A DNA stretch of 31,551 nucleotides from a virus (taxonomy: Duplodnaviria; Caudoviricetes), in IMG/VR virus record IMGVR_UViG_3300044956_000209, positions 1 to 31,551 of that record. One strand, 5' to 3'. Positions within the stretch are counted from its first letter, which is position 1, and the number at the start of each line of letters is the position of its first letter. Both the position numbers and the translations under genes were made by a program. The notes below the pieces were generated by a model. It saw only the letters and a program-made list of their open reading frames with translations, searched no databases and was not told where the DNA came from. Positions 1,162-31,551 of the stretch are shown here, in pieces.

Positions 1162-1749
1162 ATGAATACACACTGCAAAAATTCATGCGCCGATAATGTA
1201 AGAGAAAGCATGCCGCTCTTCCCGAGCGGAAGTGGCGGTTCAAATCCGACCTCGGCGCTTCAGCTGTTTATTAGCGAATGCGGAATGAGAAGGGCGCAAG
1301 AACTAAATACTACGTGGCATTCCGTATTGCCCAAAACACATCTTGGAAATCTTGTTGGAAACAAGCATAGAGTGGCATATATCGCAGAGTTTGGAACTGT
1401 CGCGTATGCGGTGGCTATATGGACAACACCAATTGCAGCAAATAGACTACGCAACGGATGGAATTTATTAGAATTACGGAGGTTTGCTATATGCAGCGAC
1501 GCGCCTCCGAACACCGCAAGTCGCATGCTTTCCGTTATGACAAGAATGATCAAAAAAAAGTTTCCTGAAATTGACGGGCTGATTTCGTATCAGGCGACAG
1601 ACCACCACCAAGGCACAATTTACAAAGCCGCAGGATGGAAACCGACAACAAGAAGCAAGTCTCAAGTATGGCATAAAGGCGAAAGCCGAAGTTCTATGCA
1701 AACGACGAGCGACAAGGTTCGATGGGAATTGCAGTGGAAGAATCACTAA
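1162..1749 (+). CDS. mom: Mom-like DNA adenine hypermodification enzyme (GNAT fold)
   Basis: Motifs LELRRFAI...APPNTASRMLS...LISY....HQGTIYKAAGW are typical of Mu Mom-family proteins. The region looks AT-richer than its flanks. Start uncertain (1162, 1210 or 1285). Confidence 0.8.
   Translation: MNTHCKNSCADNVRESMPLFPSGSGGSNPTSALQLFISECGMRRAQELNTTWHSVLPKTHLGNLVGNKHRVAYIAEFGTVAYAVAIWTTPIAANRLRNGWNLLELRRFAICSDAPPNTASRMLSVMTRMIKKKFPEIDGLISYQATDHHQGTIYKAAGWKPTTRSKSQVWHKGESRSSMQTTSDKVRWELQWKNH
1187..1262 (+). tRNA. tRNA-Gly(TCC)-like element embedded in the Mom-like ORF
   Basis: Acceptor GCGCCGA(1187-93)/TCGGCGC(1252-58); D stem ATGT/GCAT; anticodon stem CCGCT/AGCGG with loop CT-TCC-CG; T arm GGCGG-TTCAAAT-CCG(A)CC; discriminator T1259; 3' end TCA rather than CCA. 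Confidence 0.8.
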
Positions 1750-25741: not shown

Positions 25742-26025
25742 TTCTTCACCTTCCTCTTCCTGAAACGAAACCAGCCCTTGAATGATGGGTCAACCCGCAC
25801 AAGCAGCCGAGCGTACTTGCTGCGGTACACGTTGTTCAACTTGAACCTGCCCGCCAGTGAATCGTCGGTGTCGAATCGCATTTCCCAGCGGAGAATCTGC
25901 CAGACTTGCTCAGCCGATCCACGCTCGGGCTGAGACTTGCGGAGTTGGCTAGCCACATACCGGAACTTGGCAAAGACGTGTGGATTGCCACAGTGGAAGT
26001 CTGCGAATGAGCGGGGGCGTTTCAT
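25738..26025 (-). CDS. Conserved phage hypothetical protein
   Basis: FH..NPHVF..F...ILRWE...FKLNN.YRS.YARL pattern; ATGA-coupled start at 26025. Confidence 0.7.
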   Translation of the reverse strand: MKRPRSFADFHCGNPHVFAKFRYVASQLRKSQPERGSAEQVWQILRWEMRFDTDDSLAGRFKLNNVYRSKYARLLVRVDPSFKGWFRFRKRKVKK

Positions 26026-28346
26026 GCGGGCTCTCCGGTAAACAAAGTCACATCCTCTTCCGCACACTCTCGCGTTGCCCTTGTCAGGTTCTCAATCGCC
26101 TGAGTGACATACTCCCCCTTCAACTCCGCACACATCGCCTTGCGGCCCATCTTGATCGCAATGTACGGCTCGGACCCGATGCCACCGAAAGGCGAGTAAA
26201 CCAGATCGCCCGGGTTGCTCCACAACTCCACACACCTAGCGATCACGTCCAACTGCAACGGGCAGATGTGCTTGGTGTCATTCTCGCCCTTGGCACTGCG
26301 GTAGTTATTCAGCACGTTTGTTTGCCGAATATCCATCCATACCGGCGATGCGTACCGCTGCCAAATGTTGATCGAGTCAGTGCGAGCGTTGCCCTCCGAT
26401 TCCCAAGGCGATTCGCCAATGTATTTATTGAAGCGCGCATCAGGATCGCGTCGGACGGGATCGGGGAACTGGTCGATGCCATCCACCCACTTGCGAAACA
26501 CCACCACATAATCCGCCATGCCCTGCCGCGAGTTGCATGAGTCTTTGCACAGAATCTTGTGCAATAGGCCGTGATTCTTTGTCCGCTGCATTTCAATCAC
26601 TGGGTCTTTCCAGATCGTGATACGCGAGTGGTATTGCCAGCCGCAACGCTCGTGAGCGGCCACAATCTTGCCGGGAAAGTCTTTCAGGCCAGCGGCACCG
26701 TCACGCCCCTTGTACGCGGGCAGGTCTTTGCAGTGAACCGCCGTCAACCGCCCGGGAATCGTGACGCGGTACAGTTCCCTCAACAGGTATTCATAATGCC
26801 GAAAGAACTCTTCGGAGTTGGCGGAGTTTCCCATGTCCGCCATGCTTTCTGAGTATGTATAAAGATTTTCAAATGGCGGGGAATACACGCTCAATCCAAC
26901 AGAATCGGACGGCATCGCTCGCGTCACCTCAACACAGTCGCCGTGAGCGATAGTCCAATCGCCATCCTTGTGATAGACCGGAGCGGCCACGTCGTTGAGT
27001 TTCTTTCGACCAAACACCTCGTCCATTTGCGCCTCCCGCATGGCATCGACCATGCCAGACTTCATCAACTCATGGGCACGGGACTTGCCTTGCACGCTGC
27101 TGGCAATCGCCGTTTCGTGATCGGATTGGACAATGACACACCGGACCTTGCTTGTCTGTCCGAATCGGTAGCATCGGCGTACCGCCTGATAAAAACGCTC
27201 GAATGAATACGAGAGGCCGATGAAGGCCATATTGTGGCAGTGCTGAAGATTCACACCAAACCCGGCGATCTCTGGCTTCGTGACAAGCACGCGAGTCTTT
27301 CCAGACAGAAATCCGTCCATTCGAGATTCGCGTTCAAAGTCTTTCATGTCGCCACGAATCTCAACCGCATCGGGGATCAGCGGCATCAACTCATCGGCCT
27401 CGTAGTTGGAATCACACCACACGATCCACAACTCATCGCTCGCGTTCACAATCTCGGCAACCGCCTTGGCACGATTAGGAGCCGACTCGCGTTTCACTTG
27501 ATGGATAGATGTAGCGGACAACTCCACGTCTCCAAACAATGCGTCGTCCGCTTTCTTGTGGGGGGCATCGACAGTGACGTACTCGTAATCCAAACCCGGA
27601 AGGTTGTAGCCCTCGTCGCTTCCGCCAATGTCACTCGGCTTATCAATCGCCACCGCCCACGATGCCACCCACCGCCAGAAATCTTCAGCGGCGTGCGGCT
27701 TGAGATCGTACTTGCCCGCTTCCATGAGATCGTTCTGAAACCAGCGGGCGATCATCTCATAAGAATCCATCACGCCTAGGAATTGGGCATGGTTGCCGAG
27801 TTCAAGATTGTCATTGGGCGACGGCGTAGCGGTACATGCCAACCGGTACGGCGTTTCATTGAACGCTGCAATTAGTTGCTGTTTGGTTTTGCCCATGAAA
27901 GACTTGAGGATCGACGATTCATCCAGCACAACTCCACCAAAGACGGCGGTATCCAGTTTGTCAAGCCGCTCGTAGTTGCACACAGAGATACCAGTGCCCA
28001 CCTCGTCCGCCGACTTCACACCATGCACTTCGCAGTCGATGCTGAACTTGACGGCCTCTCGGCACGTTTGCGGGCCGACAGACAGTGGTGTAAGAATGAG
28101 TACCGGTTTGCCGGTTTTCTTGTGGACCCGCTCCGCCCACGCTAGTTGCATGGCAGTCTTTCCAAGCCCACACTCCGCAAAGATCGCGGCTGTTCCACGC
28201 TTCACACACCACCGTACAATCTCCTTCTGCCACGGAAACAGTGCAAGCGGGAGAGATTCGACTGGAATATCAAAGCCGCAATAGTCCGCCTTGACATGCT
28301 TCGCGTTGACGAACGACTTGTATTCGTGAATATCAATTTGATTCAT
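26022..28346 (-). CDS. SNF2-like helicase fused to an N4/N6 (beta-class) DNA methyltransferase
   Basis: ECGLGKT, DESS, TATP and QAVRRCYRFGQ, then HGDCVE, YSPPF and VYSPFGGIGSE; AGGAGG SD. Confidence 0.92.
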   Translation of the reverse strand: MNQIDIHEYKSFVNAKHVKADYCGFDIPVESLPLALFPWQKEIVRWCVKRGTAAIFAECGLGKTAMQLAWAERVHKKTGKPVLILTPLSVGPQTCREAVKFSIDCEVHGVKSADEVGTGISVCNYERLDKLDTAVFGGVVLDESSILKSFMGKTKQQLIAAFNETPYRLACTATPSPNDNLELGNHAQFLGVMDSYEMIARWFQNDLMEAGKYDLKPHAAEDFWRWVASWAVAIDKPSDIGGSDEGYNLPGLDYEYVTVDAPHKKADDALFGDVELSATSIHQVKRESAPNRAKAVAEIVNASDELWIVWCDSNYEADELMPLIPDAVEIRGDMKDFERESRMDGFLSGKTRVLVTKPEIAGFGVNLQHCHNMAFIGLSYSFERFYQAVRRCYRFGQTSKVRCVIVQSDHETAIASSVQGKSRAHELMKSGMVDAMREAQMDEVFGRKKLNDVAAPVYHKDGDWTIAHGDCVEVTRAMPSDSVGLSVYSPPFENLYTYSESMADMGNSANSEEFFRHYEYLLRELYRVTIPGRLTAVHCKDLPAYKGRDGAAGLKDFPGKIVAAHERCGWQYHSRITIWKDPVIEMQRTKNHGLLHKILCKDSCNSRQGMADYVVVFRKWVDGIDQFPDPVRRDPDARFNKYIGESPWESEGNARTDSINIWQRYASPVWMDIRQTNVLNNYRSAKGENDTKHICPLQLDVIARCVELWSNPGDLVYSPFGGIGSEPYIAIKMGRKAMCAELKGEYVTQAIENLTRATRECAEEDVTLFTGEPA

Positions 28347-31291: not shown

Positions 31292-31371
31292 CCGATCCCG
31301 TCACCATCATGATCGGCGACACCATTGAACAGATGGGCACGATGCCGGAGAGTGTTGGGAGAATCTTTTAA
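31288..31371 (+). pseudogene. 27-aa ORF resembling the truncated N-terminus of an N4/N6 DNA methyltransferase
   Basis: MTDPVTIMIGDTIEQMGTMPESVG aligns by eye with WTIAHGDCVEVTRAMPSDSVG of the in-genome MTase; GGAGG SD. Confidence 0.5.
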
Positions 31372-31551
31372 GGGCGGTGCGGCATGAAGTGTAATTCGAT
31401 ACACATTTGGAGTGATGCGAGGTGTTGTCGTCAGCGTGGACATGACGGATATTGTTGGTCACGGTCCAAGACCGACAGGTTTGGCGTGATGGTTCGTGCT
31501 GTGTGGTGGAGTGAGAACGGAAAGTTCAAGTCGCACCACGCATACGAGTAT
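31344..31551. repeat. Right copy of 208-bp terminal direct repeat
   Basis: Matches 1-208 with one mismatch. Confidence 0.97.

Follow-up and report, generated by a model that had tools for sequence, protein, structure and literature searches.

Within the first codons of a mom-family gene of a Caudoviricetes phage (IMG/VR record IMGVR_UViG_3300044956_000209) lies a complete glycine tRNA-like RNA that is also read in frame as protein, and comparison with related loci indicates that this element is real, widespread and dual-coding. We consider it likely that the candidate role of the RNA is that of a dedicated, ribosome-excluded glycyl donor for Mom. The stretch of DNA that was analysed, hereafter called the window, comprises 31,551 bases. 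It includes portal, capsid and terminase genes and has the appearance of a complete phage genome, either circular or terminally redundant. Its terminal repeat measures 208 bases (1-208 and 31344-31551, of which 207 are identical). The window also carries a second DNA-modifying gene (26022-28346, minus strand), which encodes a 774-aa fusion of an SNF2-type helicase with an N6/N4 DNA methyltransferase. The features of the mom locus are collected in Table 1.

Table 1. Features of the mom locus, in window coordinates.
Feature	Position	Strand	Basis and remarks
mom-family GNAT gene, 195 aa from first ATG	1162..1749	+	Pfam PF25680, PHROG 1384, structure model
tRNA-Gly(UCC)-like RNA, 76 nt	1187..1262	+	in frame over codons 9-34 of mom; ARAGORN, RF00005, fold, model R1, covariation
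acceptor stem, 5′ strand	1187..1193	+	pairs with 1252-1258; G1-C72, C2-G71, G3-C70 kept in 95, 94, 96 of 96
D arm: stem of 4 pairs, loop of 8 nt without GG	1196..1211	+	fold, stem parser
anticodon arm with UCC (1220-1222) as anticodon and C37	1213..1229	+	ARAGORN, RF00005
T arm; A1249 bulged, flanked by standard pairs 51-63 and 50-64	1234..1251	+	RF00005, fold; A in 96/96
codons 31-40: start of folded enzyme and first strand (36-40)	1252..1281	+	mean pLDDT 97; begins in acceptor 3′ strand of the RNA, before Met42
discriminator U73, then UCA	1259..1262	+	CCA encoded in 85/96 family sequences, not in the window

The initial annotation had described a full cloverleaf with anticodon TCC inside a Mom ORF as the only tRNA-like element of the genome, and searches covering positions 1150-1300 bear out this description. 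ARAGORN makes a single tRNA call in the entire window, a tRNA-Gly(TCC) at 1187-1259, and the Rfam tRNA model (RF00005) aligns to 1187-1258 at 28.9 bits (E = 8e-4). The gathering score of this model is 29, and no match is obtained anywhere in the window at that level. A scan with our family model R1 likewise returns one match only, at 1187-1262 with 70.4 bits. The cloverleaf is the minimum-energy fold of this segment (z = -2.99, with 0 of 200 shuffled sequences equally stable), and it survives when the flanking sequence is folded together with it. All six elements of the bacterial GlyRS identity set that had been noted for this RNA (U73, G1-C72, C2-G71, G3-C70, C35 and C36, tabulated in the part of PMC9976931 consulted) are present.

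The 3′ end of the window RNA reads U-UCA instead of U-CCA, that is, CCA is not encoded. Contigs of four other runs carry the same letter at position 1260, and therefore the UCA end is no assembly artefact. Canonical elongator tRNAs have an unbroken T stem of five pairs, a D-loop GG and a purine at position 37, and the window RNA fails on each of these features: its five T-stem pairs are interrupted by the bulged A, its D loop lacks GG and its position 37 is C. A sigma-70 promoter and terminator scan of the plus strand from 900 to 2200 found none flanking the RNA beyond chance. The non-coding sequence before the mom start (1025-1161) contains several hairpins, one of which (~1131-1151) has a GAAA loop. 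Between the convergent plus- and minus-strand operons, a GC-rich inverted repeat and the T run behind it (2049-2095) resemble a terminator by eye but are absent from the terminator scan.

That the protein is a Mom/GNAT homologue, as first proposed, is confirmed by profile and structure searches. The ORF matches the Pfam Mom family (PF25680) with an E value of 2e-12 and 47.4 bits, above the cut-off of 27.1, as well as PHROG 1384 (E = 5e-17). The top match of an AlphaFold model (mean pLDDT 86) is Mu Mom (8bv8) both by Foldseek (E = 1e-8, TM 0.66) and by VIA-align (Z 15.6, rmsd 2.6, 152 residues aligned; the runner-up has Z 14.3). An alternative in-frame ATG is located at 1210, within the RNA. 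Given that the first strand precedes Met42 and that the match to Mu Mom begins at window residue 32, translation must begin upstream of the RNA or within it.

The window protein keeps the Mu residues His58 (as His53), Arg111 (Arg107), Ser124 (Ser120) and Tyr159 (Tyr154), and these four columns are invariant in a 28-sequence alignment. Arg111 and Ser124 are the residues called essential in Mu Mom, and Asp149, Arg151 and Tyr59 are reported as important in the sections of PMC13219725 consulted; these last three are changed in the window protein to Ala145, Asp147 and Ser54, respectively. In alignment A6, Arg151 is confined to Mu and lacking in the remaining 27 rows, whereas an Asp149 equivalent is kept in most subfamilies and its loss marks the clade of the window. 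The motif could be read in 236 of 266 proteins, and of these a His lies three residues on in 48 of 76 without the Asp vs 0 of 160 with it. Mutation data for Asp149 under that numbering were not found in the consulted part of PMC7261163.

Homologous loci were fetched by enzyme-core patterns alone and confirmed with the core, and thus the RNA was not selected for. The 193 loci comprise the best 80 of 511 and the best 80 of 560 from two large collections, plus all 33 from genomes. With the window included, 175 loci were kept, in which the match starts no more than 10 residues from the core start and 110 upstream bases are present; the other 19 were excluded. The kept loci reduce to 132 distinct upstream sequences. 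Alignment-based scans did find relatives, whereas a single-protein scan of viral contigs found none.

A stem parser finds 20-21 of 21 pairs at the same place in 96 of these 132 sequences (window included), exactly 19 pairs in none, and 18 or fewer in the remaining 36. When applied to 60 control sites inside the core, the same parser reaches a maximum of 17 pairs. The family model recovered two more RNAs among the 36 failures (loci L159 and L175), and an RNA at the 5′ end is absent in 34 of the 132 core-selected sequences. In 24 viral contigs without a 5′ RNA, just one of which is near complete, there is no model match elsewhere.

Most of the family belongs to two subtypes, both of 76 nt. Subtype A, which includes the window RNA, combines an 8-nt D loop with a 7-nt anticodon loop (44 sequences), and subtype B a 7-nt D loop with an 8-nt anticodon loop (47 of 96). 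On ungapped alignments, 99.7% of stem cells are paired in subtype A and 98.8% in subtype B, and pairing falls to 33-50% in slid-partner controls. Two-sided changes are seen at 11 of 21 pairs in subtype A and 14 of 21 in subtype B, and all four stems covary; our shuffle control of this covariation ignores relatedness, and its value is no probability. The covarying cloverleaf spans genes whose proteins are 45-70% identical. The T-stem bulge is invariably A, and both pairs that flank it covary, whereas the discriminator is A73 instead of U73 in 18 of 96 RNAs. The conservation of cloverleaf and C35-C36 anticodon among homologues, on which the initial annotation had staked its case, is thus seen, with stem covariation, in 96 of 132 sequences. 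Anticodons ACC, GCC and CCC occur in family members at L175 (2808-2883), L183 (2724-2800) and L176 (63-138), and hence position 34 varies while the CC is fixed.

Between the 5′ end of the RNA and the core, the Mom frame is stop-free in 95 of 96 sequences, vs 1 and 5 for the other two frames, from which we conclude that the DNA encodes RNA and protein together. Start codons are found 4-25 nt ahead of the stem, and an ATG lies within ten codons upstream of the RNA in the Mom frame in 75 of 96 sequences (3 and 19 for the other frames). The RNAs are 76 nt long, or 79 nt, which is one whole codon more. There are two 77-nt copies: at L137 the ATG is shifted by one base and the frame is held, and L050 is the single frame exception. 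A free-standing RNA at L243 is 75 nt long; at this length bases 8-10 come to lie in frame, and they form a stop codon in 76 of 96 sequences. The two subtypes may therefore represent two ways of gaining one base to avoid this stop.

Several bases of the RNA are held constant, or held in pairs, at codon positions where their identity could drift, and because related sequences are not independent the counts that follow make the events look more numerous than they are: C2 and G71 both occupy third codon positions and are fixed in 94 of 96 sequences; pair 5-68 joins two third-codon positions and is formed in 95 of 96, by four Watson-Crick types; C35 falls on the silent third base of a Phe codon, which is TTC in 87 of 87 cases, compared with 88 of 269 in the cores of the same genes and 4 of 30 in cloverleaf-less homologues; C36 is C in 91 of 91 though its codon specifies five amino acids; and CCA, which falls on a silent position and is followed by a free base, is retained in 85 of 96, compared with CTC at 79 of 495 CTN codons in the cores. 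Taken together, the sequence comparisons show selection on the cloverleaf, on its bases of glycine identity and on the open frame. The same alignments indicate that ribosome-related features are relaxed while the GlyRS determinants, including the anticodon, are kept. The T loop has UUC in 45 of 96 and UGC in 29 of 96, the D-loop GG is present in 4 of 44 subtype A and 27 of 47 subtype B sequences, and positions 32 and 37 are variable, with a purine at 32 in 15 of 44 sequences. Cloverleaf-less homologues (L015, L017, L018, L025, L136, L152 and L059-L067) retain Leu-Phe and Ser-Pro-x-Gln-Leu with the silent positions freed. These homologues indicate that the peptide first encoded by the RNA has taken on a role in the protein.

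A pattern describing the bulged glycine RNA alone returned 120 loci of an estimated ~310. In 111 of these 120, the RNA lies in frame at the 5′ end of the Mom domain, and in another two it lies in frame at the 3′ end. At L258 the RNA is directly upstream of a separate mom ORF, and the free-standing L243 RNA has its own terminator and is convergent with a mom gene. The five of 120 without a Mom match comprise one chance match, one at a contig edge and three with 300-base flanks. In this sample the bulged RNA type is rarely found away from mom; the pattern was itself built from mom-linked copies, and the search therefore gives no share of mom genes with an RNA. The 5′ RNAs reach subfamilies far from that of the window, several of which keep the Mu His-Tyr, Arg111, Ser124 and Asp149. 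The diversity of placements (5′, 3′, adjacent and convergent) favours a product acting in trans. Model matches at L070 and at L321 (anticodon CCA, ~1 kb from mom) look like ordinary tRNAs, and L241 looks like a chance pattern match; none of the three was counted. Further model matches are present in W05, W11 and W15, and a search of sequencing runs gave no RNA holder among the matches listed.

Near-identical tRNA heads occur on divergent cores (L236/L246, L217/L265, L227/L238 and others). Of 65 pairs of loci whose RNAs differ by at most 3 bases, 30 have cores less than 45% identical, with a lowest value of 27%, which suggests that Mom cores are swapped behind a constant tRNA head. Two mom-like genes within a few kb of each other are found at L027, L032, L055, L065, L067, L119, L160 and L165, and six of these eight loci have exactly one model match and two have none. 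At L055 and L065 the RNA belongs to the neighbouring mom-like gene, not to the gene searched for.

No such RNA was found in phage Mu, and an adjacent glycine tRNA, neither bulged nor 5′, accompanies 2 of 19 cultured-phage mom loci. In phage StevieBAY, an unbulged glycine tRNA overlaps the 3′ end of mom. In Microbacterium phage Antuna, an annotated, canonical-looking tRNA-Gly(CCC) lies 33 bases after a mom-like gene on the opposite strand (L323, 1854-1928, minus strand) and is convergent with it. Marthavirus-type Arthrobacter phages (L325 1741-1814; L332-L335) have an unannotated 74-nt tRNA-Gly(UCC)-like cloverleaf without a bulge over the mom stop, which all 5 of the 5 inspected records contain; blastn matches 22 records. 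A blastn search of cultured phages with a family RNA gave no record covering 80% of it, and tblastn with the core gave 33 records, all distant. In a quick tree, RNA-less genes are scattered among RNA-bearing ones (14 changes, at least 4 of them forced by well-supported branches), and thus the RNA is either dispensable or often gained and lost; the outgroup rows were picked for having the RNA, and therefore the tree cannot show it as ancestral.

The interpretation offered by the initial annotation, an enzyme and its carrier RNA at one locus, is supported as the most likely reading, with charging and use of the RNA putative. Release of the RNA would be carried out by host RNase P and 3′ nucleases, its end would be completed by the CCA enzyme, and host GlyRS would charge it with glycine. 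The bulged A is predicted to weaken EF-Tu binding and thereby leave the charged RNA for Mom rather than for the ribosome. According to the sections of PMC7826273 consulted, the first three pairs of the T stem determine EF-Tu affinity, and EF-Tu can withhold Gly-tRNA from a transferase. We infer from these properties that the bulge blocks EF-Tu; our literature search found no paper testing the effect of the bulge on EF-Tu binding. Since the start codon is upstream of the RNA and the first enzyme strand begins inside it, each transcript would serve as a source of carrier RNA or as message for the enzyme but not as both, and this would favour a high number of carriers for each enzyme molecule. 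The window protein would modify adenine in the manner of Mu Mom.

The system had also been called self-provisioned, a term that calls for qualification: GlyRS and the enzymes of tRNA processing would still have to come from the host, and Mu Mom takes any host tRNA-Gly isoacceptor. Counting against a carrier are the use of all three E. coli tRNA-Gly isoacceptors by Mu Mom, the lack of the RNA in Mu, its absence from 34 of 132 sequences and from most cultured mom phages sampled, the lack of an encoded CCA in the window and the changed Asp149 and Arg151 equivalents. A more ambitious version of the proposal, to which we give somewhat less than even chances, is that one DNA stretch specifies both a DNA-modifying enzyme and a private, EF-Tu-proof carrier, that excision destroys the message and so sets the donor:enzyme ratio, and that the constant head is a cassette for swapped cores that probably differ in target sequence.

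Other explanations deserve consideration. The RNA might act only in cis, as a tRNA mimic in the mom mRNA through which Mom or GlyRS binding, or RNase P cleavage, throttles an enzyme that is lethal when over-expressed. We judge this rather unlikely. The cloverleaf does begin shortly after the start codon, persists with flanks folded and is at the 5′ end in the great majority of pattern matches, and over-expression of Mu mom is reported to be lethal and its regulation tight (consulted part of PMC7261163), but a purely cis function does not explain the 3′-overlapping, adjacent and free-standing convergent copies, or the retention of CCA at a silent position far more often than CTC is used in the cores. 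Some cis regulation may nevertheless be compatible with a carrier, as in the 5′ form processing itself would cut the mRNA. It is also unlikely, in our estimation, that the RNA is a near-ordinary translational tRNA-Gly with no preference for Mom, which refills a pool drained by Mom or replaces host tRNA cut by defence nucleases. The 7-nt anticodon loop, U33 and UCC are in place in subtype A, the Antuna tRNA is canonical-looking and the Marthavirus copies lack the bulge. However, every one of the 96 family RNAs has a bulge in the EF-Tu site, half of the family has an 8-nt anticodon loop, the D-loop GG, the T-loop UUC and the bases at 32 and 37 vary, and GGA is the least used Gly codon in 13 long ORFs of the window (62 of 510).

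A further alternative accepts a real glycyl carrier and proposes that the clade of the window makes a product other than 6-NcmdA, with another base or linkage. The Ala at Mu Asp149 and Ser at Tyr59 are in line with this suggestion, as is the His that accompanies loss of the Asp, which looks like a rebuilt site; yet the His58, Arg111, Ser124 and Tyr159 equivalents are kept, and the same RNA occurs on subfamilies retaining the Asp, and hence we hold this variant to be quite improbable. Phage attachment sites often contain tRNA pieces, and the Rfam score is a little below the tRNA cut-off, both of which might suggest a relic of a host tRNA gene caught at an integration site, or a chance fold. We give this almost no credence: four stems covary across genes of considerable protein divergence, the non-canonical features are ones that no host tRNA would have, and a Pfam scan revealed no integrase among 50 window ORFs. 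Conservation in 96 of 132 sequences, covariation, silent-site constraint and placement with mom together refute this idea.

The dedicated glycyl carrier that we favour would bear on a recent finding. That Mu Mom takes glycine from a charged tRNA has only lately been reported, and that work left open how competition with EF-Tu and translation is handled. Hundreds of uncultured phages appear to answer the EF-Tu competition with a rebuilt glycine tRNA carried together with the enzyme, whose use would likely serve the chemical disguise of phage DNA. The RNA is also an independent, evolutionary line of evidence for the use of glycine across the wider Mom family, and a predicted natural design for an EF-Tu-evading tRNA that is testable with few purified components. 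Moreover, the same bases are clearly under selection both for a full tRNA and for a protein, a situation that annotation pipelines miss or discard.

Precedents exist for both halves of the proposal, namely the Gly-tRNA chemistry of Mom and the non-proteogenic tRNA-Gly of staphylococci, and the surprising part is that the tRNA is encoded in frame within the gene of its would-be consumer. Our literature search, from which subscription journals were mostly absent, found no paper describing a tRNA within or next to mom. No phage-encoded tRNA is mentioned in the main text and one supplement of PMC13219725, nor is a tRNA-mom pairing mentioned in the consulted parts of its preprint, PMC7261163, PMC7824862 and preprint 10.64898/2026.09.22.753630.

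Mu Mom transfers glycine from Gly-tRNA-Gly to N6 of adenine in double-stranded DNA, forming 6-NcmdA, and accepts all three E. coli tRNA-Gly isoacceptors (consulted sections of PMC13219725). The window protein resembles it (8bv8, PF25680) in its GNAT fold, as its best structural match and in the His58, Arg111, Ser124 and Tyr159 equivalents, and the glycine identity of the window RNA fits the donor that Mu uses. However, the two proteins share ~17% identity in the structural alignment, and Asp149, Arg151 and Tyr59 are not kept. Mu encodes no tRNA and can draw on any of the host isoacceptors, whereas the RNA here is in the enzyme's own first codons. The comparison with ordinary phage tRNAs (RF00005) is similarly mixed. 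The four-stem cloverleaf is shared and recognised by ARAGORN, whereas the in-frame position in a protein gene, the fixed T-stem bulge, the Rfam score below cut-off and the association with one enzyme family are not.

In Staphylococcus, the non-proteogenic tRNA-Gly(UCC) species NP1-3 serve FmhB, FemA and FemB (PMC7826273, in the sections consulted). NP1-3 share with the present family the UCC anticodon and an altered T loop (UGC in 29 of 96 here). They are charged by ordinary GlyRS, and their weak EF-Tu binding sets them aside for a GNAT-fold transferase, an arrangement that we propose by analogy for the phage RNA. T-stem pairs 49-65, 50-64 and 51-63 are A-U, U-A and A-U in NP1-3, vs mostly G-C, G-C and C-G plus a bulged A here. 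The staphylococcal RNAs are separate chromosomal genes, whereas the present ones are viral and dual-coding, with DNA as the would-be acceptor. The likeness to NP1-3 is one of how the RNAs would work, and common descent is not implied.
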